This document shows positions 8,980 through 36,874 of a stretch of DNA of 64,000 bases, in pieces. A program made the translations under genes and the position numbers. The DNA comes from an uncultured euryarchaeote (lineage in GTDB: Archaea; Thermoplasmatota; Poseidoniia; Poseidoniales; Poseidoniaceae). Location of the stretch: assembly GCA_937899865.1 (NCBI GenBank), contig CALBRH010000033.1, positions 1,873 through 65,872 of the forward strand, given 5' to 3'. The notes under the pieces are model-generated. The model was not told where the DNA came from and did no database searches. It saw only the letters and a program-made list of their open reading frames with translations. How positions within the stretch are numbered: position 1 is the first letter of the stretch; the number at the start of each line of letters is the position of its first letter.

Positions 8980-9000
8980 CTACCCAATTGTAGTAATTTT

Positions 9001-12000
9001 ATGGTAGAGAAAAGGGGTTCTAAGAAAGGCGGACCACGCAAGTATTTCTCTACCCTTTACTATTCAAATCAAGAATCAAGAACTTCACTACCAACTGCTG
9101 AGGAGCAAGCAGAATTGGCAAAACTAACAACCGATTATGAGGGTACAAGATATCAAGTTCCGGCTGGTATGCATGATGTTCGAGATGCGAGGAAATTGTT
9201 CAAAGAAATTGATGAAGACTATGATGCTAATGCTGCCAATAAAGATGATATTCGATGGAATAGGGAACATTCCTTAGACAATAAAAATAGTGACTATGAC
9301 TATCGTTTTTGGTTACAATATCAGAGCGAAGAAATCTCTGCAGGCAATCGATCCATGCAATTGATGAAGAGCCGAAGCAAAGAATTTCGAGATGCGATGA
9401 GTAAACTATCAGATTTAACTGTGGAAGTTGCAGAGAATCTATATTCGATGAGTTATGATGTTGTAAATACTGATTCTAAAACATCTAAACTCCACCCACT
9501 TGCACATCTAATTGAGCTAAACAGACTGATGTTGAAAGAATCAAACACTACTACTAAGGGATTGGGTGAGATTATTTTGCAAAGAACAAAAACATGGAGT
9601 TATGTGATGGACATTAATTTCTCGTTTGAAAAAGACAACGGTGGCAAAAACCTCGAGTATCTTAAAGAAAAGCCACTATTTTACCATCTTGCGAACACTA
9701 TGCTACAGGTTTATTTCAAGTCAATCCGCAAATCCACTAAATTGAGAACATTCAAAAATAACGACGAGTTAATCGAAGCACTCAATGAACTTGGTTATGA
9801 AGATACTGAAGGCAAGGCTAAAAAGGAACTTAAACAAGAGTTGAAAGAACAATTATTGATAACAAGCGATAAAGATTTAACCAATAAAAATTACAAAATC
9901 ACATATGTATGTGAAACCAATTCTTTCTTTAGGAAACTTCACAAAAAAATCGGTAAAGTTTTGTCTAAATGGACGGGATATTACACTATATTACCAGGTA
10001 AGAAAGATCCTTTTTTTGAACAGTTAAAGCATGTGTTAGACTATCCAGTAAACGAATTTTTGACAGTTGATTTCATTACTCCTGCGCTGGAAAAGTTCCG
10101 TAGAACGTGCATAAAAACTGCTGCAAGTTGTTTATTTAGCGCACAGCTGGCAGGTTACATCAATTTCGATTCTGCATCAGTAGATGAATTAGATTCTCTT
10201 TACGATTCAGAGTATGAAGGCTCTAATACCTCTTATCCAAATGTGGTTCGAATGTCAAAGAAATTGCTGAATGATTTGAATCAAGGTGACCATGCTATAA
10301 TCAGACATTTCCAGATGGACAGAAAGCGTAACATGTATTGTCTGCCAAAATCGCATGTTAGACAATCAGACGAAGAAAGGCAAAGTTCCGCAAAAAGCAG
10401 TAAGGGCAATGGAGGTTTTTTGCATAATGATAGTATGACTGTATCTATACATCCTGCATTAACCAACCTGATCGAGGAAGGCAGTTTAACTCACACAAGA
10501 TTCGAACCCTCTGAAGATACAATTAATGCTCTAAATATCTTACAAAAAACCCAATGGTCGATAAATTTAGATTTTCTTGATTTCATTGCTTATTTTACCT
10601 ATGAAGGAGAAAAAATTACACCATATCCAGAAGATATTCGCCAAGTTGCCTGGCAACGTTCAGACAATATGATGTTAAGAGATATATTCATTGAAAGAAT
10701 GGGTTTACGGAGTAGCGATACTTCAATGGAATCTCGTTTCCGTGACATTAAATTTATTCTCAAACAAGCAAGAAAAAATCTACTTAATGCAGGCAACATT
10801 TTTTGGCACCCATGGTTTTGTGATTGGCGTGGTAGGTTTAACACTAAAGTAAACGAATTAAGCCCTCAGGGCGACGACCTATCAAAAGCAATGCTATTGT
10901 TTGCTAAATGGAAGCCATTAGGAGAGAGAGGACGATATTGGCTCTATGTAAGAGCATATGAATTATTAAGGAAAATACCTAAAATTAACGATGGCTTTCC
11001 TAAGTTAGATGCATTCGATAGACAAGTCGAGTGGGTTGAGGAAAGGTTAGATAAGATCATAAAGTATGGCAAAAAATTGAATCGAAAAACCTCTGAAATT
11101 GAGCTTGAGAAGTTATTACAGGATTTGAAAGTGGATAAGCCGAAACCAAAGTCGGAAATTTTTCAACGAATTGCATTCCTCATTGAATTTGTCAGAATTC
11201 ACGAAGTTTACGACAAAGAGAAAGATTGGGATAAGGTGAAATCTGGCTTACCTATACACTTGGATGCCTCATGTAATGGCTTTCAGCACATTGCTGCATT
11301 AACCCGATTAACCCGAAATGAAGAATTAGCGGAAGATGAATTAGAAAAAAAAGAAGAATTAGCAAAAGAGGTCAATCTGCTAAACAAAAGTACTCTTGCT
11401 AAAGGAGATTTGTACAAAGAGGTTGCAGTGATTGCAAAGAACAATCTGGATGAAGACTTCGTCGAGGCAAAACAAATCAAAAAACTAATTGATGACCTTG
11501 AGTTGAATGAGAACTCAAGAAACGCCCTAGAGGAAAAAATATTTTCCAGGGAATTCTGCAAACCATTAGTAATTCTTGCAGGATACGGAGCTAGAGATTT
11601 ACATTCAACTATCATGAATTTCAATGGCAAAAAATTACGCGGTGGCAGGTACAAGCCAAAGAAAGGAAGTAAGTCTGAAGTAACATTACACTTAGAATCA
11701 GAATTATATCAAGTAATTGAGGAACTTGCTAAAGAATATCCCGGCGAATTTGACAAATTAGTGTTAAAGAAACAGAATGAGGACAAGGAATATTTAATTC
11801 CAGTAGAAAATTGCAAACTAGCCCACCGCTTTGGCCTAGATTTGTCGCATTATATTCACAAGTGTATAGTCAAAGCAACCCATAATACATTAGGTGAAAT
11901 AAAGGAGAAATTGAAGGAAATATATTCCAATATTGATACACTAGGCATCAAAACTGAAACGGATTTGCAACAATTAGACGCTATGACTCATAAAGGCCTA

Positions 12001-12990
12001 GGTAAACTGTTGCAGAGTAACAATAAGCCATTTAGTAAATTAAACAAAGCGGAAAGGTTAGACTCAGTAAAGGAACTAGTAATTGAAAAATGGAAGAATA
12101 AATTGTATTTCTCTTGGCAAGCCAATGAAACTTCTTCAATAGTTCGTTATATTAAGTGGAAATTGGAAAATGAGCGTGGTATGGCTAAATTGCCAACAGC
12201 AATCCTGCCTAAAGATTACATAGATCCAGGGCCAGAAGAAATCCAAAATTTCATCATTAACAGCCCCGACCTTTCACCCGGTCTTTTGAAAGAATTACTT
12301 GAAGCTCAAGAAAAAGTCCATGAGTCTCGCAAAGAGAAAAAATCTAGTTTAAAATCAAACCCACAGTCTTGGCAGGAAAGAAAATTAACGAGTAGGGTTT
12401 TTATGTGCTTACGCAACATCATATTACGAACTAAAGATGATGAGCATAGAGAGATTGCCAAAAACCATTATTATGCTAGATTTATCGATTTGCCAAAAGG
12501 TCGAATTAAGGAAGGGATTAAGCAGGGCAACCTTTACTCGATAGACACGAGTTACAGTATGAAGTTCAAAACAGATAAGAAAGGTTTGAAGGAGGCAGTC
12601 AACAAATTAAGAGACTTGAGTAGTGATATTGTTTTGGGAATGTTACCTAATTATATCCATTCTTTTGATGCTCTTCACATGCAAAATGTTGTGTTGGAAC
12701 TTGACAAGAAAGGAATACAGGATATTTGGGCGGTTCATGACTCATTTGGTGTTCATGCTTGTGATATCGAGTATTTACGAGATATTGTACGTGAAACTTT
12801 TGTTGAAATTCATCAAGATCCAATTCAGGTTCATTTGAAGCGAATTGTCGAACTGAATAGGTCAATTTTAGAGCCAAAATTTGTCGATAAATACATAGTA
12901 AAAATCGATAAGGAAATTGAGGAAATAAACCGTTCCCCTAATAATGATTGGATAAATAATGTACTGCATTCCAATTACCTAATTTCTTAG
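9001..12990 (+). CDS. T7-like single-subunit DNA-dependent RNA polymerase (~1329 aa)
   Basis: Catalytic and structural motifs align to T7 RNAP. HPWFCDWRGRFN matches T7 YNMDWRGRVY. Motif A is IHLDASCNGFQHIAAL (T7 QDGSCSGIQHFSAM), at 11257-11301. Motif B is REFCKPLVILAGYGA (T7 RSVTKRSVMTLAYGS), at 11548-11592. LPNYIHSFDALHM matches T7 APNFVHSQDGSHL. Motif C is WAVHDSFGVH (T7 LIHDSFGT), at 12727-12756. Start set at M29 (9001) rather than the track start at 8917. Confidence 0.92.
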   Translation: MVEKRGSKKGGPRKYFSTLYYSNQESRTSLPTAEEQAELAKLTTDYEGTRYQVPAGMHDVRDARKLFKEIDEDYDANAANKDDIRWNREHSLDNKNSDYDYRFWLQYQSEEISAGNRSMQLMKSRSKEFRDAMSKLSDLTVEVAENLYSMSYDVVNTDSKTSKLHPLAHLIELNRLMLKESNTTTKGLGEIILQRTKTWSYVMDINFSFEKDNGGKNLEYLKEKPLFYHLANTMLQVYFKSIRKSTKLRTFKNNDELIEALNELGYEDTEGKAKKELKQELKEQLLITSDKDLTNKNYKITYVCETNSFFRKLHKKIGKVLSKWTGYYTILPGKKDPFFEQLKHVLDYPVNEFLTVDFITPALEKFRRTCIKTAASCLFSAQLAGYINFDSASVDELDSLYDSEYEGSNTSYPNVVRMSKKLLNDLNQGDHAIIRHFQMDRKRNMYCLPKSHVRQSDEERQSSAKSSKGNGGFLHNDSMTVSIHPALTNLIEEGSLTHTRFEPSEDTINALNILQKTQWSINLDFLDFIAYFTYEGEKITPYPEDIRQVAWQRSDNMMLRDIFIERMGLRSSDTSMESRFRDIKFILKQARKNLLNAGNIFWHPWFCDWRGRFNTKVNELSPQGDDLSKAMLLFAKWKPLGERGRYWLYVRAYELLRKIPKINDGFPKLDAFDRQVEWVEERLDKIIKYGKKLNRKTSEIELEKLLQDLKVDKPKPKSEIFQRIAFLIEFVRIHEVYDKEKDWDKVKSGLPIHLDASCNGFQHIAALTRLTRNEELAEDELEKKEELAKEVNLLNKSTLAKGDLYKEVAVIAKNNLDEDFVEAKQIKKLIDDLELNENSRNALEEKIFSREFCKPLVILAGYGARDLHSTIMNFNGKKLRGGRYKPKKGSKSEVTLHLESELYQVIEELAKEYPGEFDKLVLKKQNEDKEYLIPVENCKLAHRFGLDLSHYIHKCIVKATHNTLGEIKEKLKEIYSNIDTLGIKTETDLQQLDAMTHKGLGKLLQSNNKPFSKLNKAERLDSVKELVIEKWKNKLYFSWQANETSSIVRYIKWKLENERGMAKLPTAILPKDYIDPGPEEIQNFIINSPDLSPGLLKELLEAQEKVHESRKEKKSSLKSNPQSWQERKLTSRVFMCLRNIILRTKDDEHREIAKNHYYARFIDLPKGRIKEGIKQGNLYSIDTSYSMKFKTDKKGLKEAVNKLRDLSSDIVLGMLPNYIHSFDALHMQNVVLELDKKGIQDIWAVHDSFGVHACDIEYLRDIVRETFVEIHQDPIQVHLKRIVELNRSILEPKFVDKYIVKIDKEIEEINRSPNNDWINNVLHSNYLIS

Positions 12991-12991
12991 T

Positions 12992-13016
12992 CAATTCCTA
13001 TACTATAGGTTAGGAG
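12992..13016 (+). promoter_or_regulatory. Phage-type (T7/SP6/K11-like) promoter candidate P1
   Basis: Sequence caaTTCCTATACTATAGGTTaggag lies 2 nt after the ssRNAP stop and 76 nt before the paralog-1 ATG. It shares the consensus AWTCCYAYACTAKAGGTT with P2 and P3. The core ACTATAGG is identical to the T7 promoter -7..+2. Confidence 0.55.
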
Positions 13017-13091
13017 AAAAATTAGCCGCATAATTTTAGCATAATTTATGCCAAAATAATGGAAAAAATACCCTGCCGAGGAGGTGAAAAA

Positions 13092-14390
13092 ATGAATAGT
13101 ATAACTAAATCAGTAAGTTGTGATAGTTGTGGTAATGACATCACGGTTCTTAATATTGGTAAAGATCCAGAATTACCGTTGTGTTTAATATGCACGCCAT
13201 GGGTGAATAATTCTCTAGACTATAGTCCTCATAAAATCGCAGGCGTAACCATAGATGATTTAGAATTATTCAGGAAATATCGTTCAATTACCAAGGGAAT
13301 TAATATTCCTAATGACGATTATAGTTGGAACTTATTCATCTGTGCGATAGTTAAGGCTAATGGTGATAATAACCTACTTGAAGAGGTACAGCAAGATTAT
13401 CAAACTAGATTAAAAATCCATCCAGAGCTTAGAGATTTCCTGACAATATCCTGGTCTGAAATACCTGAGAATGATGTGCTGAGAAAGACTTATTCTGATG
13501 TTGATATTGTAAATGATATCATCTCGGTATTCAAATCATATGAAATAGAGCAAGAGTATTTGGTAGCATTGTATGAATGTAGCCAGAAATATGAAAAGTA
13601 TCTTTCCACCTTAGGTAAATATGATTCCCAACCGGCAAACAGTTCATATTTTGCAGATTTTGAAACAGCAAAAAAGAATTTAGAAGGGAAATTGTACAAA
13701 ATACAATCGATTACAATTCCTGGCAAAATTATTGGTGATGCGTTGAGAATTGAGACAAACTGTATTTCTCGAGAATTTATTATCCAATTACTATATGATT
13801 ATGTCAAAAGCGACCAATCATACTCGTTCAATGATGCTTTGAATAACGTTACAAAATCAGTCACTTTACTTGACAAACTAATGGATCATCATGCCAATTT
13901 GCCATTCAAAAGATATCCAAACTCGCCTTTGGTTTTGGAAATTCTTAGCAAAATAATCAGTGGAGAGTACTGCAAAAACTCACAATACTCATTATTATCG
14001 GTCATAGCAAATAACAACGATTGTTATGACCAATCATGTAATTACTATCATAGAGATCGTAAAATATGGCAGAAATCATTTCAGTTATTAGAAGGGGTTA
14101 TCAGAACGTTAACAATTTCAAATGTTATAATTTGTAATGATGGACTAAAAGTTAGAGGCAAAAGCGGTAGATGGTATCTAGTGGAGCCAAGAGAAGGTAC
14201 CCCTATTTCCCAAAATGATGACTTTGTTGTAACTACTCTTGATGAAGGAGACAATGTTTGTATTCACATGAGATATCCATTTCGAGATATGCCGCTCGGC
14301 GACCAGTTAGCTTCTCTAGTGATGACTTTGTATAATGACAAAGTATTATTTGATAAAATTGATGTTCGTATTGACCCTTACTACTACTGA
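13092..14390 (+). CDS. Zinc-ribbon protein, island paralog 1 (~432 aa), unknown function
   Basis: N-terminal CDSC...x20...CLIC ribbon. The C-terminal block is shared with paralog 2: SFQLLxGxI, GxSGRWYxxEP, NxxCI, MPxGDQLASxVxTLxND. Start set at 13092, directly after the GGAGGTGA Shine-Dalgarno site. Confidence 0.75.
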   Translation: MNSITKSVSCDSCGNDITVLNIGKDPELPLCLICTPWVNNSLDYSPHKIAGVTIDDLELFRKYRSITKGINIPNDDYSWNLFICAIVKANGDNNLLEEVQQDYQTRLKIHPELRDFLTISWSEIPENDVLRKTYSDVDIVNDIISVFKSYEIEQEYLVALYECSQKYEKYLSTLGKYDSQPANSSYFADFETAKKNLEGKLYKIQSITIPGKIIGDALRIETNCISREFIIQLLYDYVKSDQSYSFNDALNNVTKSVTLLDKLMDHHANLPFKRYPNSPLVLEILSKIISGEYCKNSQYSLLSVIANNNDCYDQSCNYYHRDRKIWQKSFQLLEGVIRTLTISNVIICNDGLKVRGKSGRWYLVEPREGTPISQNDDFVVTTLDEGDNVCIHMRYPFRDMPLGDQLASLVMTLYNDKVLFDKIDVRIDPYYY

Positions 14391-14528
14391 ACTAAATTTC
14401 ATTTAGTAAATATTTGATTCAATCTTTTATGACTTTATTCAGATATTGTTGCAAATAATTTTCATGAAACAAACCCTATTTGCAAAACCAAAACGGCCCA
14501 CTGAACCAACACAAACTGTCAATAATTA

Positions 14529-14550
14529 CAATTCCCACACTAGAGGTTCG
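14529..14550 (+). promoter_or_regulatory. Phage-type promoter candidate P2
   Basis: Sequence caaTTCCCACACTAGAGGTTcg lies in the 277-nt spacer between the two paralogs. Confidence 0.5.
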
Positions 14551-14641
14551 CCACTACCAATATTTCAACACAACAATGTTCCATGTTCATCTCAACCAAA
14601 TAGCGTTTAGATATACCGCTTGAAAAATATCAAGTGCGGTG

Positions 14642-14664
14642 AAAATCCTACACTAGAGGTTACG
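14642..14664 (+). promoter_or_regulatory. Phage-type promoter candidate P3 (overlaps the paralog-2 Shine-Dalgarno site)
   Basis: Sequence aaaATCCTACACTAGAGGTTacg ends 4 nt before the ATG at 14668. GAGGT could also act as a ribosome-binding site, so the call is ambiguous. Confidence 0.45.
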
Positions 14665-14667
14665 AAA

Positions 14668-15975
14668 ATGTCTGAAAATATTATGAGAACAAATTGTGAA
14701 AGTTGTAAGACCAAACTAGCAACTGTAGATTTATCACAAGAACCCGACTTAATTTTGTGTGAGTTGTGTAAGCCATGGGTATTACATTCAATATATCAAG
14801 TGCCTAAGTCAGTAATTGGTATTGCGATCAAAGATCCTGAAATGTTTAGACATGGTCTAAAATTGATGGAAGGGTTTACCGAACCCGAACATGAGCGTGA
14901 CTGGTTGACTCTTCTGTGTCACATATTTTCAAAAAAAATATACGATGAAGAAACGTACGTGTCGACTTTAGGTACAGACATGGTAAATTCCCTTAGACAA
15001 GACTATGGTAACAGATGGAAGATATACGATGATGAAGCACTTGAGATGTTTGATATGTCCAAAAAAGTGGATTGCATTGAACCCGAAGCACTCGAACATA
15101 TTGAGTTTGAACATTGGGCTAATGATTTAACATTTCATTCAGAGTTTATCTCCGAGATGAAAGAAATACTCACCTTTTACCTAGATAGACGCAAAGAAAA
15201 CCAAGAGCACCAAGATTCACTCAAAGCATCTGGCTGGGGAGACTATGTAAAACTTCTAAACTTCAATGACGATGAACCGAAAATCTACAAAATTAATCAT
15301 CGTTTTGAAATTACGACCGAGCAAATTTACAAGGTTCTAGACTGGGCTGAAAAATATGATATTAGCTACGATTTCGTCCTCCAATTATTCTTTGATTGGG
15401 CGACATCTCATGCTCATAGTACAATCGATGGTTTGTTGTATGAAGCTAATATATATGCGCCTAAAATTCGTTTGGCATCATTCAAACATATGCCCAATTC
15501 GACGGAATTGTGTCGCCAAATTTATTGTTTGGCTAAAGGATATCATGGGCAAAATTTGCAATATCTCATACTTGCAGCAATACATCGATGGGGTCAGCAA
15601 CTATCGCCTTCACACCATTTTCTAGTTAGAGATGAAGAGGTTTGGTCTCGTTCATTTCAACTGCTAAGAGGCATTATTGAATCATTGGGTAGTAAACGAG
15701 CCAGAATTGATGTCGGACTAATCAAAATTAAAGGTGAGAGTGGTAGATGGTATGGAATTGAACCTGCAACATACAAGACAGATCTCCAACATTGGCAGGT
15801 AACTTCACTACCTAAAGGAAATTACATTTGTATTGATATTCAAGAACAGCATCTGAAAATGCCGATTGGTGACCAATTAGCATCAGTAGTTCTTACACTA
15901 GCCAACGACATTCTAATGGAACAAGAAGTACACACTTTACGACCTGAAAATTTTGGAAGAATACTACGACAATGA
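14668..15975 (+). CDS. Zinc-ribbon protein, island paralog 2 (~435 aa), unknown function
   Basis: N-terminal CESC...CELC ribbon and the same C-terminal blocks as paralog 1 (GESGRWYGIEP, GNYICIDIQ, MPIGDQLASVVLTLAND). Start moved from 14620 to M17, because motif P3 lies inside the longer ORF. Confidence 0.75.
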   Translation: MSENIMRTNCESCKTKLATVDLSQEPDLILCELCKPWVLHSIYQVPKSVIGIAIKDPEMFRHGLKLMEGFTEPEHERDWLTLLCHIFSKKIYDEETYVSTLGTDMVNSLRQDYGNRWKIYDDEALEMFDMSKKVDCIEPEALEHIEFEHWANDLTFHSEFISEMKEILTFYLDRRKENQEHQDSLKASGWGDYVKLLNFNDDEPKIYKINHRFEITTEQIYKVLDWAEKYDISYDFVLQLFFDWATSHAHSTIDGLLYEANIYAPKIRLASFKHMPNSTELCRQIYCLAKGYHGQNLQYLILAAIHRWGQQLSPSHHFLVRDEEVWSRSFQLLRGIIESLGSKRARIDVGLIKIKGESGRWYGIEPATYKTDLQHWQVTSLPKGNYICIDIQEQHLKMPIGDQLASVVLTLANDILMEQEVHTLRPENFGRILRQ

Positions 15976-16037
15976 TTCGCAAAAAGACTTGCCAGTCTAA
16001 AATGGCGCTGTAATCCCAGCATAGGATAAAACAAGAA

Positions 16038-16331
16038 ATGGAGGAAAATATAATGAAAAAAATAAGCAAGAAAACAGAGCAAGCAAACCAAGATGAGGGT
16101 AAACTCATCAAAGTAGAAGTGGCTGACCCAGCCCATGGGCATCAAACTTTGATGCTAAAACCTAAGGAGACTCAAGAATATTTGAGCACTCAATCTGACA
16201 AATGGATATTTGTCGACAACGAATTTACTCAAATTGAGAATCTATCCTTGGTCAACTGGAATACCACTGATACTGTTAGAGTCCTGCCAGGTTTAGTTGG
16301 AGGAATGATTAACAATGAGTATCGAAGATAA
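16038..16331 (+). CDS. Ubiquitin-like (ThiS/MoaD/SAMP-type beta-grasp) protein precursor with an internal diglycine
   Basis: The C-terminal region FVDNEFTQIENLSLVNWNTTDTVRVLPGLVGG-MINNEYRR has the ThiS/MoaD pattern (xVNxxxV...DxVxxxPxxxGG). The GG codons are at 16299-16304 and are followed by an 8-residue tail. The ORF overlaps the E1 gene by 17 nt. An alternative start is at 16053, after a GGAGG site. Confidence 0.7.
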   Translation: MEENIMKKISKKTEQANQDEGKLIKVEVADPAHGHQTLMLKPKETQEYLSTQSDKWIFVDNEFTQIENLSLVNWNTTDTVRVLPGLVGGMINNEYRR

Positions 16332-16971
16332 GTCGGACAAAATAAAAATTCTAGTCGTTGGACTTGGTGGCATTGGTTCGCAATTAACTGAATTAATTGT
16401 TCCAGCCTTAGACATAAGCGGCCTTAATGTTGAGTTGAACTTGATGGATGGGGATGTAGTTGAGAATAATAACCTCGCACATCAGAGGTTTTCTAGCGAA
16501 GATGAAAACAGTCCTAAAGTCGAAGTACTTCAGCAAAGGTACCAACGATATGAACACGTTAAGACAATAGCATACAATAACAACTTGACCACACAATCGC
16601 AATTGGAAGGTTATGACATCATCGTTGTTGCAGTCGATCGGCAAGAACCACGTAATCTAGTACACAAGAGTGACGCACACTGGGTAGACATGAGATGTCA
16701 AGGGGATGGTTGGTTACTAATCGATAGCGATACCAACAAAAGCATTCTCGACAAGATTCCCAACAACAAACAACCAGTCGGTTGTCAACTACCTGGCGCT
16801 ATTGAAAGTGGCAACATAGAGTTTGGATTTGCCGCAGTGGCAGCACTTGGTGCTCAGTGGGTTATGCAGAAACTAAGGATAATCAATGGACATCAATCAA
16901 GGACGCCCAAATTCAGCATGGGATATCTAACCCATGGGCAAATGAAGACATCAGTATTGGAGGAGATTTGA
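16315..16971 (+). CDS. Minimal E1-like adenylyltransferase (ThiF/MoeB/UBA family, 218 aa)
   Basis: Rossmann loop ILVVGLGGIGSQL, then MDGDVVENNNLAHQRF (the ThiF xDxDxVxxSNLxRQ motif), then IIVVAVDRQEPRNLV (the Mg/ATP aspartate and arginine). Confidence 0.8.
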   Translation: MSIEDKSDKIKILVVGLGGIGSQLTELIVPALDISGLNVELNLMDGDVVENNNLAHQRFSSEDENSPKVEVLQQRYQRYEHVKTIAYNNNLTTQSQLEGYDIIVVAVDRQEPRNLVHKSDAHWVDMRCQGDGWLLIDSDTNKSILDKIPNNKQPVGCQLPGAIESGNIEFGFAAVAALGAQWVMQKLRIINGHQSRTPKFSMGYLTHGQMKTSVLEEI

Positions 16972-17550
16972 ATGGATATTAACTTCTTCAAAGAAATACC
17001 AGAGCCTGTAATTGACGTCGAATCAGAATCCAGTATAGATTTTGTAATTAATTTGGCAAAAAAATGTAATTGGAATTTGATTTACCTGCTGAGTAAATGT
17101 GTCTCTAGAGAAGTGTCAATACTTGTCGATAGCAAAGACAACTACTTTGTTGATTGGGGGACGATTGGCAGCGTTGAATTAAGTCCACCAGTAGGTGCTG
17201 TATTACCATTCAAACTGTGGGTTCACACCCACCCCTCGAACACAGCTTACTGGAGTATTACCGATCGAAACACCCTTGAGATCGCCAAAGGTATACTCGA
17301 TAAAGCCTTAGTTCTAGGTGAAAACGGTCTACTTTCAACAATACTTCAGCCGATAAGTTCATCCACCGATGACACTGTAAATTCTAATCTACGGTGGACG
17401 GAGGAAGAGGTGATGGATTGGTTGGAATACAATCTAAACCACTTGGATTACGATTTTACAGATGATTTGTATTCTCCAGATTTCAAATTTAGATGGGATG
17501 GAAGGAAAGTATTCACTGATAATTTTGGTAGTGATGGAAAGGATTGGTAA
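16972..17550 (+). CDS. JAB/MPN (JAMM) metalloisopeptidase
   Basis: An exact JAMM signature H-x-H-x7-S-x2-D: VHTHPSNTAYWSITD (17224-17265). Its start abuts the E1 stop (TGAATG). Confidence 0.85.
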   Translation: MDINFFKEIPEPVIDVESESSIDFVINLAKKCNWNLIYLLSKCVSREVSILVDSKDNYFVDWGTIGSVELSPPVGAVLPFKLWVHTHPSNTAYWSITDRNTLEIAKGILDKALVLGENGLLSTILQPISSSTDDTVNSNLRWTEEEVMDWLEYNLNHLDYDFTDDLYSPDFKFRWDGRKVFTDNFGSDGKDW

Positions 17551-17625
17551 AACAATCTACACTTTCAAATTTGGTTAAACATGCCAATAAATGATGTTCG
17601 CATGGGTGCAAAGCCCAATATGTAG

Positions 17626-17859
17626 GTGAGAAAAATGAAAGAAAATAAAGATAACAAAGAAGAAAAAGAAAACAAAAATCATACAGATATGAAAGAATTT
17701 ATGTCAGCTTTGTACAAGTTGATAATTGCTCAAACTGAGAGTTTAGAATTAGAATCCAAATTAAACAAGCAATTCATGAAGGATCGTGGAATTGGTGCTA
17801 AAGCGGAATTTGATTCTAAGCAGGATTGGCCTGATGAATTTTCAGAGGAGTGGGGCTAA
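17626..17859 (+). CDS. Small acidic helical protein (74-77 aa), unknown function
   Basis: The ORF has a GGTGAG Shine-Dalgarno site, then a GTG at 17626 or an ATG at 17635. It has a K/E/N-rich N-terminus. No motif recognised. Confidence 0.4.
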   Translation: MRKMKENKDNKEEKENKNHTDMKEFMSALYKLIIAQTESLELESKLNKQFMKDRGIGAKAEFDSKQDWPDEFSEEWG

Positions 17860-17950
17860 TTATCACAAATATGTGTAAACGTAGCACACTATTGGCGTTT
17901 GAACAGGTGCAAGACCTGTATAATATTGATAAGAATAGGAGAATGAAAAA

Positions 17951-19348
17951 ATGAGTAAAGAAGAAGAAACAAATGGAATAATAGAGCAAAGAGAAGGTGA
18001 GGAAAACAACGATACTAAATTCACAATCAACAGTCCGATTGGAGACGTTTCAGTCGATATGCTAGAGTATGAGGCAGCAAAGAAAATTGCGAAAAAGCAG
18101 GTTAATCCACCAGAATTAAGTCTACTAACCCAAAAGGCACAGAAGTTCCTTGGTGGGCAAGAAGAAACCGATTTTATATATTTTAGACCGAGATTAGGTT
18201 CTCTAATCAAACTACACATTGATGACGAGTTCGATGACTATGAGGTAGTGAAAGAATTTTATTTACACGGTGGCATAGAAATACCCGCCATTTATTCAAA
18301 CACTGAAGTTGATAATTCTGAAAAGAAAAGATTCCTCCAAATAGGTGTTAGATTTTATGAAAACGAAACGGAGAAATTTGTTGTTGTATGTACAGTGGAT
18401 GATTATGACAACGATGAGCGAATCACTATTATGACAACAGAAGAGGGTAGAGGATTGGAACTTCTCCAAAGACTTGAGGATGGTTTCTATGCCAGAGGTG
18501 TACTAAAGAATGCCTTCTTTGATATGGAATACAATTTTATTTCAAGAAATGAAATGGTTGATACCTTGATTGCTTGGAATGACGATATCAAAAAGCAACT
18601 CGATAAGGATGTCATAGAGTTCTTGAAAATAATGCCGCTGCTAAAACAAAAAGGGCTGCCTAATTCACGTGGAATTATCTTGTCAGGTCCACCAGGTACA
18701 GGAAAGACAATGATGGCTAAATCACTGGCTGCTCAAGCAAATGTCACAACCATACTAATTTCAGCTGAGATGATTCAGGGGCCTAGTCAAGTCAAAAGGG
18801 CGTTCAAATTAGGTAGAAAGTTAGCGCCGACCTTGATGATTATCGAAGATATAGATACTGCAGGAACGGTAAGTCGAAGATTTACCGATCACCCAATTTT
18901 GGGTGAGTATCTTCAAGCAATGGATGGCATGGAATCCAATGATGGTATGCTGATTTTAGCAACCACCAACCACACTGAGAACATTGACCCAGCGATTTCT
19001 GACCGACCAGGTAGATTTGACAGGATTATCGATGTTCCACTACCAAACGTCAAGCAGAGAGAACTTATGATACAGAATTTGCTTACCAATATGCCATCTG
19101 AAGATATGCCCAAATCGGTTATTTCTGAAGTCGCTAAGAAGAGTGAAGGTTTGTCTGGTGCTTGGCTGCGAGAAGTAATCCAATGTTCACTGATAGAGGC
19201 TATCTATGAGGGTAAGGAGCAGATAGGCGTCAAGAATCTTGAGGATGGGCTTGTCGATGTTCTAAAGCGAAGAGGCATGGCTTATCAACCAACACCAAAT
19301 CTAGCAGGATTATATGACTCAAGGAAAGCCGACGTCTACACTATGTGA
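17951..19348 (+). CDS. Classic-clade AAA ATPase (Cdc48/FtsH/proteasomal-ATPase-like single AAA module) with a unique ~230-aa N-domain
   Basis: Walker A is GPPGTGKT (18686-18709). Walker B is LMIIEDID. Sensor 1 is ATTN. The second region of homology and Arg finger are DPAISDRPGRFDR. Confidence 0.9.
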   Translation: MSKEEETNGIIEQREGEENNDTKFTINSPIGDVSVDMLEYEAAKKIAKKQVNPPELSLLTQKAQKFLGGQEETDFIYFRPRLGSLIKLHIDDEFDDYEVVKEFYLHGGIEIPAIYSNTEVDNSEKKRFLQIGVRFYENETEKFVVVCTVDDYDNDERITIMTTEEGRGLELLQRLEDGFYARGVLKNAFFDMEYNFISRNEMVDTLIAWNDDIKKQLDKDVIEFLKIMPLLKQKGLPNSRGIILSGPPGTGKTMMAKSLAAQANVTTILISAEMIQGPSQVKRAFKLGRKLAPTLMIIEDIDTAGTVSRRFTDHPILGEYLQAMDGMESNDGMLILATTNHTENIDPAISDRPGRFDRIIDVPLPNVKQRELMIQNLLTNMPSEDMPKSVISEVAKKSEGLSGAWLREVIQCSLIEAIYEGKEQIGVKNLEDGLVDVLKRRGMAYQPTPNLAGLYDSRKADVYTM

Positions 19349-20161: not shown

Positions 20162-20575
20162 ATGAAACAAGAAACAGAAAAAAAACAAGAAAACAAGAAA
20201 ACAGAACAAAAGACGCGTTGGTATGACGAAGACTTACCCTCATTGATTGAGGTGGATTTACAGACCAGCTTGTCCCATAACGCTAGAAAGTGGGCACTAG
20301 ATTTTTCCAACCCTGAACATATTGGGGAGTATACATGGAACGAGTTCTGTGGCTTATTGCTGCAGAATGCCGGAGATTACCGAGTAAGATGTATTTTAGC
20401 GATTGATTGCTTTGATGCAAAGATTGGTTTGTCGATGTATAAAACAACATTTAACGCGATTGGAGTAGAGCTTGAACTAGGGGAGTTCACTATAGTTGCC
20501 CCTGACAGACGTGAAGACCAAGCCGCTTCCGAAGAGGTAAAAGTTGCAGAAGCACCTGGCATGGAGGTGGTCTGA
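20162..20575 (+). CDS. Hypothetical protein (137 aa), first gene of a translationally coupled operon
   Basis: The ORF has a K/E/Q-rich N-terminus. Its stop overlaps the next start (ATGA at 20573-20577). Confidence 0.55.
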   Translation: MKQETEKKQENKKTEQKTRWYDEDLPSLIEVDLQTSLSHNARKWALDFSNPEHIGEYTWNEFCGLLLQNAGDYRVRCILAIDCFDAKIGLSMYKTTFNAIGVELELGEFTIVAPDRREDQAASEEVKVAEAPGMEVV

Positions 20576-20748
20576 TGTGCCCATATACAAGTCCTCAAGC
20601 CATTGCATTTTGGAGTAAAGCTTGTAACTTCTGTCGTGGTTCAGACCTGAACCATAAGTGTGGCAACCCTGCTGCTTGCAAACGAACTTTAGACAAAGCA
20701 AAGTCTGCAGAAGCAAGTCACCTTTTATTTGTAGAGGAGTGGCAGTAA
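20575..20748 (+). CDS. Unlisted small Cys-rich protein (57 aa)
   Basis: Own translation: MCPYTSPQAIAFWSKACNFCRGSDLNHKCGNPAACKRTLDKAKSAEASHLLFVEEWQ. It is below the track length cutoff. It has an ATGA overlap upstream and a TAATG overlap downstream, so it fills the gap exactly. Confidence 0.45.
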   Translation: MCPYTSPQAIAFWSKACNFCRGSDLNHKCGNPAACKRTLDKAKSAEASHLLFVEEWQ

Positions 20749-21071
20749 TGTGGGTATTTACCTCAACAGGTATGCTTTCTGTTGTTGCTCATAGGGATCT
20801 GAAAGGGTCCTTACTTGTTAGAGCTAGAAGTCCTTTCCACATTCGGGAAATGTTTCCATACGCTGCAGTAGAGCAGACTCCTAATGCTGACTATCCATTT
20901 AGGGCAATAATTGAGCGTGAAACATTTGCTAATGTCATGTTAGACTACTCACTTAACATTGACTATGACAATTTCAAGAATAGTATTGAGGAAAAGAACT
21001 TCCAAGAACACTGTCTTGAGGTTTGGGCAACCATGCGCCGATATGGCTTAAACTGGGGGAGTTTTGAATGA
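20748..21071 (+). CDS. Hypothetical protein (107 aa)
   Basis: Start moved to MWVFTSTGMLSVVAHRD..., which couples to the small-ORF stop. The stop overlaps the next start at 21068. Confidence 0.55.
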   Translation: MWVFTSTGMLSVVAHRDLKGSLLVRARSPFHIREMFPYAAVEQTPNADYPFRAIIERETFANVMLDYSLNIDYDNFKNSIEEKNFQEHCLEVWATMRRYGLNWGSFE

Positions 21072-21691
21072 GCAGAAATTATCGTAATAGTCGTTCTCAT
21101 AAACTGAAAATAACCTGGATACCAATATGGTACGACAAGAAGACTGCAGGTCATATTGGGATGACATTTTGCCCTGGTAAAGTCCAGCCTTGGTCAATGA
21201 CCGGTGGATGGCATAGAGATCTTGATTTGGACATTAGAGAACTGAAGAAGGCTAATGTTGGTCATGTAATTTCACTGATTACTAAGGATGAAATGGAAGA
21301 GTTAAGAGTCAAAAATTTGGGTAAAAAATTACAATCCAATCGTATAGAATGGTATCATGCACCAACTCCGGATGAAGAAGTTCCAGATAACATGTGGTTT
21401 ATCAGATCATTATCGATAATAAAACAGGTTATGCCAAATTTCTACAGAGGCAAACGCGTTGTTGTTCACTGTAAAGGTGGAATAAGTCGAGCAGGTGTCT
21501 TTACTTGTATTGTAATATGGTTGTTGTCAGGATTTGATATGACTAGCGCAATTTCAATGGTAAGAGAAATGCGGGACCCTCGCGGCATAAATGAAGGCCA
21601 AGAGCAGTTTTTACTTGATTATGAGAAAAATTGGCAGACTTGGATTCAAAATAACACCGTAGCTGATGAATGGTTGGAGGAGATGGCATGA
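21068..21691 (+). CDS. Cys-based dual-specificity/tyrosine protein phosphatase
   Basis: P-loop VVHCKGGISRAG (the HCx5R signature, ~21466-21495), with an upstream PTPDEEVP general-acid region. Confidence 0.8.
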   Translation: MSRNYRNSRSHKLKITWIPIWYDKKTAGHIGMTFCPGKVQPWSMTGGWHRDLDLDIRELKKANVGHVISLITKDEMEELRVKNLGKKLQSNRIEWYHAPTPDEEVPDNMWFIRSLSIIKQVMPNFYRGKRVVVHCKGGISRAGVFTCIVIWLLSGFDMTSAISMVREMRDPRGINEGQEQFLLDYEKNWQTWIQNNTVADEWLEEMA

Positions 21692-22524
21692 GGGATATAG
21701 AATTAGAAATGAAATTACAGAAATCATTGAATGAAGGCAACAATGTATGGGTTGTTGGCGATGTTCATGGGTTTAATCTAACACTAAGGGAACTTGTTTC
21801 AAAACTTGAAATAAAGACAGGTGATTATGTTGTGTTACTTGGAGATTTGATTGACCGTGGACCTGATTCATATGATGTAATTCAATTTGTCAAGAACTCG
21901 CCAAACATGACTACAGTAAAGGGCAATCATGAGAAAATGATGGCGAAAGTATTCTCAGTTTCTCGTCTTGAGAAACCAGACTTACGTATTTCAACATGGT
22001 TCTATAATGGCGGCTTAGCAACTGCAACATCTTACATCAATGCATATACTGATTCTAGTGGCAATGAGAATACACAAGAACTTCATCAAGCGATTGAGCG
22101 AGATAAATTGTGGATCGAACAATTACCGAGTCAAATTGTGTTAGATGATTGGCGACTGGTCCATGCAGGATATGATCCAAACGTGGATTTAGATTGTCAT
22201 ACAGACAGTGAATTGTTACATGTTAGGAAACCCTTCCATCGAGCAAAAGAGCCAATAGACATACATCGAACAATACTTTTTGGCCATTCAATTACCATAA
22301 CTTTACCTGGAATGAGTAAAGAAAATTGGGGCGATCCATGGTTTTCATCAATTAGGTTGGAAGATGGTAGACCTGCTGCAATAGGGCTAGACACTTGCGT
22401 GTTTCATACTGCAGACAGTCCAGCAATGCTGACGGCTTACAATTTGCAAGATGGCAGGTTTGTTCAGCAACTCAGAGTTGAACCATGGAATAAGCGAGCA
22501 ATAAACAAAGCAAATAATGTATAG
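21688..22524 (+). CDS. PPP-family metallophosphoesterase (lambda-phosphatase / PrpA / ApaH-like Ser/Thr phosphatase)
   Basis: Motifs GDVHG, GDLIDRGPDS, GNHE, HAG and GH occur in canonical order. Start set at the ATGA overlap with the upstream stop. Confidence 0.85.
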   Translation: MRDIELEMKLQKSLNEGNNVWVVGDVHGFNLTLRELVSKLEIKTGDYVVLLGDLIDRGPDSYDVIQFVKNSPNMTTVKGNHEKMMAKVFSVSRLEKPDLRISTWFYNGGLATATSYINAYTDSSGNENTQELHQAIERDKLWIEQLPSQIVLDDWRLVHAGYDPNVDLDCHTDSELLHVRKPFHRAKEPIDIHRTILFGHSITITLPGMSKENWGDPWFSSIRLEDGRPAAIGLDTCVFHTADSPAMLTAYNLQDGRFVQQLRVEPWNKRAINKANNV

Positions 22525-26893: not shown

Positions 26894-29800
26894 ATGGATG
26901 AGCGTGCGCTAAGGCTAGTAAGCCCGGGCTTGCCTCAATCTGGAGACCCTCGAAAGCCTGCAATTTTCTTGATTTTGTTGATGTTAGTAGCCATTTCAAA
27001 TCCAGTAGCAGCAGATACATCCATTTCTCGAGATGATTTTGATGTTATCGATGCTCTTATGGAGACTTTAGCGGATAGAACACAAGGCGGAGAGCCAGAT
27101 GTTGCTATCAATGCTGCACAAGGTGCATTGGCTCAGGTTGATGCTAACGCACGAGGCATTTCTGAGTCTGACCCACTAGCAGTATCCAATTCTTTCTTAG
27201 ACAATATTTCTATGCGTGATTCCTCTTCTTTTGAGCCTGACCATCCAAGACCTTACGAATTTTTGATGGATGCATCAACTCAACCAGAGGGATTCCCTAA
27301 CAATTTATTTGAAACATTATTTTCAGTGAATAATCTTGATTTAAACAATATTCTTGCTATAGGAATCAATACCTATGCAGTATATGTAAACTTCACCTCT
27401 AGAGATAGTGGTCCCTCTTATGAAGCATGGGCTCAAGGTACTTTTACCGGTGAGTTGATTGTTGATGGGCAACTCGTATTGTTCGCAAATTATATCGATA
27501 TAGATGGTGATGGAGCCGACGATTTATCAGTTGCATTGACCATTGAAGGCATTCTAAATCAAGGAGATGGCTGGGGTGTTGAAACAAGTGGTGGACTAAT
27601 TCCGATCATTGAGAAACTATGGATAAATCCTACTTTCCAGTGGGAAGTCAGCGCATTAGATCAGACCGACCCATTATGGGACTCTCTGCAACATTTAGAA
27701 ATTAGTTTAATGAAAGGTTTAGCTTTTGACATCACTCTAGATGATTCTGAATCATATGCTATTGTAATTGACACACGATTCACCCAACCTCCTCATGAAT
27801 TTACATTAGGAGTAGGAATAGAGCGGATTGAGTTTAATATCGCACCACAGGATTTGATCTCATTCCTCGCCTCTTTGCTGATTGGAACTGTTAATTCAAG
27901 CGAATTTTCCCTCTCTTCCATAACCGCTCCTTATTCGGTACAAATTAGAAATCCTAATGCACCAGGCACAGATATCCAAACAGATTGTCAAGATGAATCA
28001 TATTACGACCCAATTGCCGATAATGAAGCACCGAGTCATGAGCACAAATGTGGCTTTGGCATTGGTGTGGGATATATTCGGTTTGACGGCGATGGAGGGG
28101 GCTCTTCAGCACCAGTATTGGAAATGAGTTACCTCGATGCTGGTTTCCACCCAGAAATTGGAGATACAAAACTGCCAGAAGAAGTTGACCTAACAATTAG
28201 AAATGATAATCTAGGCGAGAATTCTTTTGATTCAGTAGAAATATATTCTGACAAAGGTTCTGATGTTTATCTTCATTACTTTGAGGATAGAGCTAATGTA
28301 CAAGATGGAGAATCTGAGTTTGGTAATGTCACAGATGCAAGAGCATGGATTCATGGTTTGCCATCTGGAACTATGCCACAACAAGAGATTAATTCAATTT
28401 TCACAATGATTGGTGAAGCACCAAATTCAGTAAATCTTCCTGGTGAAGTGCCCGATCGTCTTTCATTAATTATTGCAATAAAGAATTTCACTGGAGACAC
28501 TTCTGCCAACGTAAATGACCCAACTTTGCCAGTGAACCCCACAGATGCACCTAATACGCTAATTGCCGTAGTAGGGACTGAATCAATCGATCGGCTCGAA
28601 TACAAATCAACTTTTGAGCGAGGTGGAGTATCAACAGACAGTTCTTCCCTTGAGGTAGTTGTTGAAGATGTGCCTAATGCAATATTGATCGAGGGTAGTT
28701 TCTTAGTTTCGCCAACTGGCATAGATAGAGTGAATTATGACAATCCTAATCTAAACACAATTGCTCAAATCTTTGACAACGCATTGCTAACTGTGGTTCA
28801 AGTCGTACTTGATATCGGCGACATAGTCAACTCTCTTCCTGATTCAATAATCAGCACTACTGGTTCAGAAGGAGGGACTCTAGAAGTTCATTGTTATGAT
28901 CAAATCACAGGTAATCTTGGAGGTGACCCTCGAGAGTCTATGGAAATAGGTGTACTCGAGCTGTCATTTTCCAGTAGCGACAATCCAATAATTCCTGACC
29001 AAGACCATATTTTGTTGGCTGAAGACACCAATATTGAGCAAGTAATCAGTAGATCGGGAGAACCAATCAAACCTCTAGTACCGGTTGCAATCAGTGTTCG
29101 GGTTTCTGGAATTTCTGATATTGTCCAAACATTTGATTCCCAAACCGATGTAAGGGATATCGAAATTTTAGGTTCAACAGGAGAATCAATACTCGTAGGA
29201 CATATCAAACATAATGATGGTGATCAAGCCAATGCAATTACTCAATCTGCTATGGTTTCTAACCGACCAGACACACTGAAAATCATTCAAACCTCGAGCG
29301 CTCTGACCTATCAAGCCAGTGAGCCAATACAGTCGATTACCTACGGAGGTAAGAGCCCATCTCAACAAAATTCAATCCAATTAAATGGTTTACCATCTGA
29401 TTTTTCTTTAACTTTAGGTGATACTTTAGGATACACAGGCAATCAACCAATTGAATCTATAATCATTCAATTAACAAATGCTAGTGAACCTAAGACCATG
29501 GATGGTGATCATTTCAGATTTTGGATTGACCAAGACACTGCAGAAGCTAGTATGAGTCTGAAGATTTCAGATATCATTAGCCTTACAAGATTTTCGCCAC
29601 AAGTTCCCGATGCAGTTGGCCCAGAGGGTAATTCACAGATTGAGATGATTAGAAGCCAATCATCGCCATTCTACATTATGTTTGAAGATGAATCACAATA
29701 TGAAGACGAATTTTTAGGCATGAATGGCAAAGCAATTCTTCAACCACTGCCGTCTAATATTTCGGTAGAATTCCCTAGTACAGTTGATTCTTCAAGCCTT

Positions 29801-31555: not shown

Positions 31556-31559
31556 TATT

Positions 31560-32159
31560 ATGGTTGAAGAGGAAAATGGTGTCATTGTTAATGATGAGGG
31601 AGAACTCCTCATACATGAGGACACTATTGTAGAAACAACTCAAATGTCTGCTGAAGATTTGGCAATTCTCCAAGCATCAAAAGACGCTGCGGAATTTGTT
31701 AAAGAATTACAGAAAGAAATAACTCCAAATCGAGTTGCAACAGCTGGCCTAATTCTTCTATTGTTAATGGGAGCAATCTTCTGTACTTGGTATTGGGTGA
31801 TTCCGAGAGATTCAGTGATGGTAGAAACATTGTACATGCAAAGAAGTGGGCATTTGGTTATGTCAGAAATTCATAATACAGGTAGTAGAGAAATTACTGA
31901 TGTTGAAATTCAGGTGTCTTTCCAATCTTTGGATGGAGAAGTCCTCGAAACAATGGGTATCGAAGTAGAATCTATTTCCGCGCACTCTTCAATAGCGGGT
32001 GATGATTTAGAAATGTTAATTGCCGGTTATACAGTTTGGGATAATTATGTCATTGCTATCGACTTAAAATATACTGATCATCGTGGTGATTTACAAATCA
32101 TGTTGGTAACTCATGAAGTAGGTGATTGGGCTTGGGAAGAGTTCAATGATAGAAATTGA
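31560..32159 (+). CDS. Single-pass membrane protein
   Basis: Start moved to the ATG 5 nt after the upstream stop. TM helix ATAGLILLLLMGAIFCTWYWVI. Confidence 0.5.
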   Translation: MVEEENGVIVNDEGELLIHEDTIVETTQMSAEDLAILQASKDAAEFVKELQKEITPNRVATAGLILLLLMGAIFCTWYWVIPRDSVMVETLYMQRSGHLVMSEIHNTGSREITDVEIQVSFQSLDGEVLETMGIEVESISAHSSIAGDDLEMLIAGYTVWDNYVIAIDLKYTDHRGDLQIMLVTHEVGDWAWEEFNDRN

Positions 32160-32215
32160 GCAAATTCTCACACAATACCCCAAGCAATAAAACGCACCGG
32201 AACTAGGACTTAATT

Positions 32216-36805: not shown

Positions 36806-36874
36806 TTATTTTTTGTTAAAATAACATAAACATGAAAGGATAGGCTTTTGATACTAAGTCGTTCACCCCTAAAC

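Follow-up and report, generated by a model that had tools for sequence, protein, structure and literature searches.

The question raised by the 64-kb stretch of DNA analyzed here (64,000 nucleotides from an uncultured euryarchaeote, in the following called the window) is whether a single-subunit RNA polymerase (ssRNAP), encoded in the chromosome of a cell, is served by promoters of its own. Phages and organelles, and a few prophages and plasmids as well, are the known homes of T7-type RNA polymerases (RNAPs) and their promoters. In the window, three copies of a short motif, here called P1, P2, and P3, follow an ssRNAP gene and lie in the non-coding stretches before two paralogous genes. The original prediction held that they are the cognate promoters of the adjacent polymerase, with initiation at a GG dinucleotide. 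Comparative analysis bears this out as very probably correct: the strand and position of the motif copies, the conservation of the motif in orthologous loci, the presence of different motifs in different polymerase clades and the identity of the core to that of phage promoters all argue for it.

The degenerate 16-mer TCCYAYACTAKAGGTT has exactly three perfect matches on the two strands of the window, at 12996–13011, 14533–14548, and 14646–14661, all of them on the plus strand. The next-best sites carry three mismatches, which is the level reached in shuffled sequence, and nothing else comes within two mismatches. The looser sub-patterns AYACTAKAGG and TCCnAnACTA return the same three sites only. 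All three copies are present as first quoted, i.e., P1 as caaTTCCTATACTATAGGTTagg at 12992–13014, P2 as caaTTCCCACACTAGAGGTTcgc at 14529–14551, and P3 as aaaATCCTACACTAGAGGTTacg at 14642–14664, each on the plus strand; the span originally assigned to P3 was exact, that of P1 ended 2 nt too late (at 13016), and that of P2, given as ending at 14550, should end at 14551. A 14-nt form of the motif is expected from base composition about 0.04 times per strand in 279 kb, and three exact copies within 1.7 kb are therefore far beyond chance. P1 begins 4 nt past the TAG stop codon of the polymerase gene (12988–12990), and its predicted leader is 84 nt long, with a Shine–Dalgarno-like GGAGGTG at 13080–13086 preceding the ATG at 13092. 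P2, which carries a C at -9, has a predicted leader of 123 nt. The predicted +1 of P3 lies only 10 nt before the ATG at 14668, and the mRNA predicted from it would therefore be nearly leaderless.

For comparison, phage promoters were taken from GenBank records (the 13 annotated T7 promoters of NC_001604, those of K11 from NC_011043, and those of SP6 from NC_004831). The consensus sequences are TAATACGACTCACTATAGGG for T7, AATTAGGACACACTATAGGGAGA for K11, and AnTTAGGTGACACTATAGAAG for SP6, and the sequences first quoted for the three phages agree with these records. The archaeal motif is identical to the 13 T7 promoters at -6, -5, -4, -3, -1, +1, and +2, and position -2 is variable, as it is in T7 (T or A). 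The near-identity to phage promoters noticed at first for the -8..+2 core holds: the core (ACACTATAGG) equals that of the K11 and SP6 promoters, and ACACTATAG(G) is exactly common to K11, SP6, and the archaeal motif. A T3-like form, CACTAAAGG, is present in two related loci (L002 and L004). Upstream of the core, -17..-13 is A/T-rich, as in T7. The block at -12..-8, where phage promoters carry their specificity, reads TCCYA here vs. CGACT in T7 and GGRCA in K11, which agrees with the earlier suggestion of a lineage-specific block at this position. T7-type promoters are asymmetric elements of ~19–23 bp whose conserved stretch runs from about -17 to +3/+6; their melting and initiation core, (C)ACTATAG, occupies -7..+1, and transcription starts with G. 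Judged by its sequence the motif has this make-up. It occurs in multiple co-directional, intergenic copies and is encoded together with an RNAP of family PF00940.

The gene directly upstream of the motif copies indeed encodes an ssRNAP. The mechanically called open reading frame (ORF) starts at TTG 8917 (8917–12990), and the conserved start is the ATG at 9001, corresponding to M29, in all homologs. The ORF matches PF00940 in Pfam with E = 5.8e-40, and its matches in the PDB are T7 RNAP and mitochondrial RNAP chains (~1e-21 to 1e-18). Alignment to T7 RNAP with hhalign (99.3% probability) places T7 D537 of motif A and K631 and Y639 of motif B, and T7 H784 and D812 are aligned in the comparison with PDB chains. 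The residues corresponding to D537, K631, Y639, H784, and D812 of T7 are D783, K882, Y890, H1248, and D1275, and they are invariant in 23 homologs. With motifs A, B, and C conserved and the ORF intact, the polymerase appears, as judged from sequence, to be catalytically competent. An AlphaFold2 (AF2) model matches the folds of mitochondrial RNAP and T7 RNAP (Foldseek, E = 1e-12 to 1e-9). The best phage RNAPs in GenBank are 25–30% identical over about one-third of the protein, and the archaeal enzyme is ~450 residues longer than T7 RNAP, including a conserved N-terminal extension. T7-type RNAPs read their promoters with a specificity loop, a β-hairpin that precedes the FxHSxD motif, and with an N-terminal AT-rich recognition loop; no part of the archaeal enzyme could be matched to the N-terminal elements. 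The archaeal segment just before GMVPNFIHSFD, at about residues 1195–1235, is conserved within clades and hypervariable between clades, with insertions and deletions, and the AF2 model (pLDDT 71.6, TM-score 0.3–0.44 to T7 RNAP) puts a strand and a loop there. By its position this segment may be equivalent to the T7 specificity loop.

About 90 related loci (numbered with the prefix L) were gathered from genomes and metagenomes. The motif was counted as a 14-nt pattern in the window, L001–L027, and L133, together 279.5 kb. There are 41 copies on the strand of the RNAP gene and none on the other, where ~0.04 per strand are expected, and all 41 are intergenic and lie 5–1741 nt downstream of the RNAP stop codon. 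The objection that the motif could be a generic repeat, occurring at similar frequency everywhere, does not fit such a distribution. In orthologs P1-type sites were found by position and not by pattern. A motif copy lies 5–6 nt past the RNAP stop in all 24 loci that include this sequence in the clade with 46–99% RNAP identity; next to orthologous ssRNAP genes the motif is thus kept at the same position in every locus of the clade that reaches past the stop codon, whereas the flanking non-coding DNA diverges. The P2-type site is kept together with its own flank, ACAATTCCCACACTAnAGGTTCGCCAC, in L006, L007, and L014, and 10 non-identical loci share the P3-type site in the form GGTGAAAATCCTAYACTAnAGGTTACGRAAATG. 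Between about -14 and +3 the information content is high, except at -2, and it drops on both sides. Upstream of the RNAP gene no copy of the T7-like motif was found in the clade of the window.

Deeper RNAP clades are without the motif of the window and have a motif of their own instead, 15–21 nt long, which follows the RNAP stop directly and recurs one to four times further downstream, again on the RNAP strand. It is TTCCCACTCTAATAGA in L024/25 (39% RNAP identity to the window, two copies), AAAATTTCCATACTAGTAGA in L134/135 (40–42%, two to three copies), and AAAATTCTACCCTAATAGA in L136, a Poseidoniaceae metagenome-assembled genome (MAG) from NCBI (37%, three copies). Further away it is AGTCTTAGACATATG in L028-31 (32–36%, two copies), GCGCCACATAACACATA in L033/34/36 (~32–34%, three to five copies), and CGAAACTTACCAGTATCGAGG in L065 (~33%, two copies), and there are further distinct clade motifs in L042/59/60, L037/58/61/63/68, and L039/45/55. 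The motif thus co-varies with the polymerase clade, as is expected of a T7-type system. In at least five of the deeper clades the gene that follows has its ATG immediately at the 3′ end of the clade motif (0–1 nt). This geometry makes sense only if transcription starts at the motif and gives a leaderless mRNA, the arrangement common in archaea; a TATA box, an operator or a site of RNA processing would hardly account for it. As a separate observation, the clade motif of L039/45/55, GAAACTTGCAACAATAGTA, is also found on the opposite strand upstream of the RNAP gene (L039 1588, L045 538, and L055 3626, minus strand), which suggests a divergent ssRNAP-driven unit in that clade.

The ssRNAP gene is itself preceded by a conserved element of another kind. 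An anchored comparison of the 80 nt upstream of the ATG showed that GAGTTAGTTTATTTAC is kept in 17 loci with 39–99% RNAP identity, and it stands at the same position in L005, L009–L025, and L133–L136. It contains a TATA-like octamer, TTTATTTA, at 8972–8979, i.e., -29..-22 from the RNAP ATG, a distance which implies that the host RNA polymerase would make a leaderless mRNA here. That GAGTTAGTTTATTTAC acts as a TBP/TFB promoter we infer from the known geometry of archaeal promoters; it fits what is expected of them, namely a purine-rich B recognition element (BRE) followed by an A/T-rich TATA octamer centred ~26 nt upstream of the start, and P1–P3 do not. In translated searches this conserved DNA was taken as a spurious "protein" similarity upstream of the true RNAP start.

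The following chain of events would account for these features. The host archaeal RNA polymerase, together with TBP and TFB, would transcribe the ssRNAP gene from the TATA-type promoter at 8965–8980 into a leaderless mRNA. The ssRNAP would recognize an asymmetric element of ~19–23 bp, composed of an A/T-rich part at -17..-13, the lineage block at -12..-8 (TCCYA), and a core for melting and initiation that resembles that of T7, YACTAnA followed by GG. It would start at the first G of each site and transcribe rightwards through the genes of the zinc-ribbon paralogs, and transcription would probably continue into the co-oriented genes for a ubiquitin-like protein, E1, JAMM, and AAA proteins (Table 1).

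It is conceivable that the motif acts not as DNA at all but as RNA, i.e., as a ribosome-binding or translation-enhancing site, or as an RNase processing site, in a long host transcript begun upstream of the ssRNAP gene. Every copy is on the sense strand, as an RNA element would need, P3 has GAGGT 8 nt upstream of the ATG at 14668 in a genome that uses GGAGGTG-type sites (e.g., before ATG 13092), and no terminator-like hairpin was found between the RNAP gene and P1. The motif, however, stands 84 nt (P1), 123 nt (P2) or 10 nt (P3) before the ATG in the window, and 0–1 nt before it in other clades, so that no single role in ribosome binding or processing fits, and in loci without paralog 1 some 200 nt after P1 are free of ORFs. 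Neither a base-for-base T7/K11 promoter core nor a change along with the RNAP clade is expected of an RNA element, and no RNA structure was found in the block upstream of P3 and no Rfam family in 12800–16400; we therefore regard this explanation as very improbable. A site for a host protein on the DNA, be it a TBP/TFB (TATA/BRE) promoter of unusual form or a transcription-factor operator, would suit an archaeal host with TATA-box promoters and the A/T-rich core (TATACTATA), and P1 of the window is, save for its centre, a 13-bp palindrome, CCTATA-C-TATAGG. The palindrome is not kept, though: -2 varies between T, G, C, and A with an invariant symmetry partner, and -7 varies between C and T without compensation. 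All 41 copies have one orientation, and the invariant C and G positions as well as the P2 variant CCCACACTAGAGG make poor TATA boxes. In archaea the TATA box precedes the start by ~26 nt, yet in many loci the ATG is 0–10 nt from the end of the motif, and the actual host-type element in front of the RNAP gene differs, being GTTTATTTAC at -29..-22. A host-protein site is likewise very improbable.

The least probable of the explanations considered is that the sites are promoter remnants without function, left by a virus or plasmid module that has decayed, spread by gene duplication and standing beside a disused ssRNAP. ssRNAPs are typical of phages, the chromosomal neighbors of the cluster differ between lineages, and P1 and P3 precede paralogous genes, so that one of the two could stem from duplication. 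A relic would nevertheless not be expected to persist down to 46% RNAP identity when the adjacent non-coding DNA does not, nor to co-evolve with the polymerase in deeper clades. The RNAP ORF is moreover intact, with catalytic residues invariant in 23 homologs, the cluster contains no capsid, terminase or integrase genes, and no relative was found in 2.9 million viral contigs.

Several points nonetheless weigh against P1–P3 as cognate ssRNAP promoters. The whole case rests on comparative sequence analysis. We infer binding by the RNAP, the exact start site, the extent of the transcripts, and the protein segment that reads -12..-8; initiation at the GG in particular stays a prediction. Because many of the loci are related, the 41 sites are not independent events, and the independent evidence amounts to about 8–10 lineages. 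The motif scan of this genome took in 64 kb only. P3 contains GAGGT 8 nt before the ATG, and part of its conservation could therefore reflect ribosome binding on transcripts that start upstream. The AF2 model of the RNAP is of moderate confidence (pLDDT 71.6), and its TM-score to T7 RNAP is only 0.3–0.44, for which reason the equivalence of the hypervariable segment to the specificity loop is positional and not demonstrated. Finally, a polymerase of this size could act either alone, as T7 RNAP does, or with a factor, as mitochondrial RNAPs do.

Table 1. Positions of the polymerase gene, the putative promoters and the accompanying genes and elements in the window
Feature	Position	Strand	Remarks
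Conserved archaeal BRE/TATA-like element GAGTTAGTTTATTTAC	8965..8980	+	21–36 nt upstream of ssRNAP ATG
Single-subunit (T7/mitochondrial-type) RNA polymerase gene	9001..12990 (from ATG)	+	1329 aa; PF00940
P1, putative ssRNAP promoter	12991..13013 (-17..+6)	+	Predicted +1 = G13008
Zinc-ribbon paralog 1	13092..14390	+	432 aa; no known family; first gene after P1
P2, putative ssRNAP promoter	14528..14550 (-17..+6)	+	Predicted +1 = G14545
Conserved ~40-nt block AGCGTTTAGATATAGCGCTTGAAAAATATC...GGTG upstream of P3	14602..14640	+	Alignment of 13 loci
P3, putative ssRNAP promoter	14641..14663 (-17..+6)	+	Predicted +1 = G14658
Zinc-ribbon paralog 2	14668..15975	+	435 aa; family member conserved across all RNAP clades
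Ubiquitin-like protein	16038..16331	+	97 aa; conserved ...PGLVGG, then short tail
E1-like ThiF-family adenylyltransferase	16315..16971	+	PF00899; NCBIfam PRTRC ThiF and SAMP E1; PADLOC E1-E2 models
JAMM/MPN+ metallopeptidase	16972..17550	+	E...HTHP...AYWSxTD; weak AMSH and Rpn11 PDB matches over motif
AAA+ ATPase (PAN/CDC48/FtsH-like)	17951..19348	+	Lies upstream of RNAP in L028/L031 clade
Two small proteins of unknown function	20162–20575 and ~20748–21071	+	Rest of conserved cluster (20162..22524)
Dual-specificity phosphatase	21068–21691	+	Conserved cluster
Calcineurin-like metallophosphoesterase	21670–22524	+	Conserved cluster

The regions around the predicted start sites contain further signals. 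The conserved block upstream of P3 includes a TATA-like sequence, TTTAGATA, at 14606–14613, and is similar to the element in front of the RNAP gene. Paralog 2 may thus have a host-type promoter in addition to P3, the second of this kind in the window. An RNA-structure reading of the same block was dropped, as RNAalifold gave -1.4 kcal/mol and no compensatory pairs, and an Rfam search of 12800–16400 returned only a chance-level fragment of RNase P (E = 0.21). The predicted P1 leaders mostly open with a stem-loop at or near +1, often a stable one, with sequences that differ between loci, as do those of the 5′ hairpins of T7 late mRNAs; GGGGCAAAAAACCCC and AACCCCCAAGAGGGTTT are examples (L009 4050–4100, L016 4092–4140, L133 8644–8690, and L135 ~8750–8775). 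In L002 (4200–4290) and L004 (5710–5800) a strong, extended hairpin, GGAAGAAGG...CCTTCTTCC, stands in the long leader that separates P1 from the gene after it; it could serve in termination, attenuation or processing. Sigma-70 promoters and intrinsic terminators, which are bacterial signals and irrelevant for an archaeon, were scanned for and stayed at the level of shuffled sequence. Two short contigs with the zinc-ribbon gene, L139 and L140, were considered as assembled transcripts and rejected: L139 begins inside the motif and L140 inside the TATA-like block, and their ends are therefore probably assembly breaks caused by the repeated motif and not the 5′ ends of transcripts.

The locus belongs to the chromosome of a Marine Group II archaeon (Ca. 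Poseidoniales) and not to a phage or a bacterium. In species-representative genomes all six RNAP matches are in MAGs of Marine Group II archaea (Poseidoniales, Poseidoniaceae or "Euryarchaeota"). The window carries aIF1A, RIO kinase, and a KH/Dim2-like protein side by side, i.e., informational genes of archaeal type, and it also holds ribosomal protein S2, the nuo (complex I) operon, and zwf-pgl-edd-eda. An ortholog of the cluster is found on an 819-kb contig in the same gene order, adjoining genes for photolyase, carotenoid cleavage (BCD family), and lycopene cyclase. A protein-pattern scan of 2.9 million viral contigs gave no relatives of the RNAP, and the cluster contains no PHROG structural genes, capsid, terminase or integrase. 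The locus is a set of genes conserved in the chromosome and does not have the obvious look of a mobile "island." Viruses that might carry this promoter were also considered: scanning the 2.9 million viral contigs for TTCCTAYACTAKAGGT gave 44 single-copy matches, none of them beside cluster genes and about as many as expected by chance from the estimated size of the collection. In L033 (1–8302) and L053 (14472–18463) the cluster is flanked by genes for an SF1 helicase, a radical-SAM protein, a NERD nuclease, and a subtilase, a set reminiscent of defence islands; these flanking genes of the most distant RNAP clades (L032–L070) are not taxonomically informative.

The genes downstream of P1–P3 accompany all RNAP clades, the most distant included, and those from 14668 to 19348 are co-oriented and closely spaced. 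The paralogy first noticed for the two genes behind the motif copies is confirmed, as their products are 25–28% identical and both have an N-terminal CxxC...CxxC. Paralog 1 is present only in the closest relatives of the window. Paralog 2 has an invariant Cys388 after a four-strand β-meander. The zinc-ribbon proteins have no match in Pfam, NCBIfam, PHROG or PADLOC, and an AF2 model of paralog 2 (pLDDT 68.5) has no significant PDB match and only weak Foldseek matches to the E2 UbcH7 (E = 2–6). Homologs of the ubiquitin-like protein (Ubl) are 70–100 aa long, and their profile matches PDB chains of ubiquitin and polyubiquitin. In L033, L060, and L062 the Ubl forms a fusion with a protein of ~400 aa, and E1 and JAMM are fused to each other in L037, L055, L061, and L068. 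Two 137-aa proteins gave no PDB profile matches.

By their sequences the downstream genes make up a predicted ubiquitin-like conjugation cassette. They resemble prokaryotic Ubl cassettes, such as archaeal SAMP/UbaA/JAMM and the bacterial Ubl-E1-E2-JAB operons (PRTRC, Bil, and CBASS-Cap2/Cap3), in having a β-grasp Ubl with a tail behind its final GG, an E1 of the ThiF type, a JAMM protein, and an AAA+ protein. They differ from these in that no clear E2 was found in the archaeal cluster, and it is tempting to speculate that the zinc-ribbon proteins are the missing E2-like component. No defence system was matched as a whole in PADLOC. To our knowledge, no Ubl cassette has been reported with a dedicated ssRNAP and private promoters.

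Two known homes of ssRNAPs offer a partial parallel. In T7-group phages (T7, T3, K11, and SP6; Autographiviridae) a single-subunit polymerase of PF00940 is likewise paired with an asymmetric element of ~23 bp, the first promoter comes directly after the RNAP stop (K11 phi1.05 starts 10 nt past it and T7 phi1.1A initiates 26 nt past it), and there are several co-directional, intergenic copies, with initiation here predicted at the GG; leaders that begin with stem-loops are a further likeness. The archaeal system differs from the phages in its host and in being a chromosomal locus and not a phage genome, in having T and not G or A at +3, and in having only two to three promoters, which serve one gene cluster. 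In many archaeal lineages, moreover, the ATG is placed at +1/+2, so that the mRNA would be leaderless, and the RNAP gene is predicted to be driven by an archaeal TATA promoter. Mitochondrial RNAPs (yeast Rpo41 and human POLRMT) are of the same family and fold, and the best Foldseek matches are to the yeast and human initiation complexes (E ~1e-12). They too are encoded in a cellular genome and expressed by the multisubunit RNAP of the cell, and they too have a long N-terminal extension relative to T7 RNAP. The archaeal motif, in contrast, is phage-type in length and sequence, and the archaeal RNAP sequence is no closer to POLRMT than to T7 RNAP. Mitochondrial RNAPs need an rRNA-methyltransferase-like factor (Mtf1 or TFB2M) and use short promoters unlike those of T7. 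No methyltransferase-like domain was found in the cluster proteins with Pfam, NCBIfam or PHROGs, although the genome beyond the cluster may still encode one. A mitochondrial-type promoter system, i.e., an RNAP combined with an Mtf1/TFB2M-like factor, is thus not what the locus presents.

On balance we lean towards the view that Marine Group II archaea keep an orthogonal, phage-type transcription system in the chromosome, in which a large, TATA-driven ssRNAP and its co-evolving, private T7-like promoters would yield mRNAs with short leaders or none for a Ubl/E1/JAMM/AAA+/phosphatase cluster, and which is apparently vertically inherited. The mechanism, an ssRNAP with T7-type promoters, is of a known kind. 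New are the setting in an archaeal chromosome, the proposed wiring from TATA promoter to ssRNAP to private promoters and leaderless mRNAs, and the Ubl-conjugation cargo, and so is a set of ~10 co-evolving polymerase–promoter pairs. A full-text literature search, of incomplete coverage, turned up no account of an ssRNAP in archaea, be it from Marine Group II or from elsewhere. If the reading is true, this would be the first ssRNAP–promoter pair described in Archaea and the first cellular, non-organellar gene cluster served by an ssRNAP of its own. Polymerase and promoters are chromosomal in a group that ranks among the most abundant archaea of the surface ocean, and the pair is conserved and co-evolving down to ~30% RNAP identity. 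Its use might be to maintain expression of the cluster, or to gate it tightly, at times of impaired host transcription, e.g., during virus infection. Confirmation would extend the host range of the ssRNAP family to Archaea and provide a natural case of a cell that uses an orthogonal polymerase as a dedicated expression switch. It would also supply ~10 naturally matched polymerase–promoter pairs of differing specificity as potential tools for orthogonal expression. The locus opens a way to study how genes are regulated in a lineage without cultures, and it is relevant to the cellular domestication of a phage-type polymerase, as occurred in mitochondria.

Three other regions of the window deserve mention. 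A lone gene for a Cas4-like PD-(D/E)XK nuclease lies at 59923–61119 (minus strand); neither a CRISPR array nor any further cas gene is close to it in the window. Near the RNAP cluster, at 960–5428 (minus strand), there is a complete bacterial-type set for the Entner–Doudoroff and oxidative pentose phosphate pathways (zwf, pgl, edd, and eda). At 26894–39898 a gene for a PKD-domain protein is followed by three consecutive, very large ORFs of 1553, 1529, and 1016 aa, the first of them without a Pfam match, and all three may encode cell-surface proteins.

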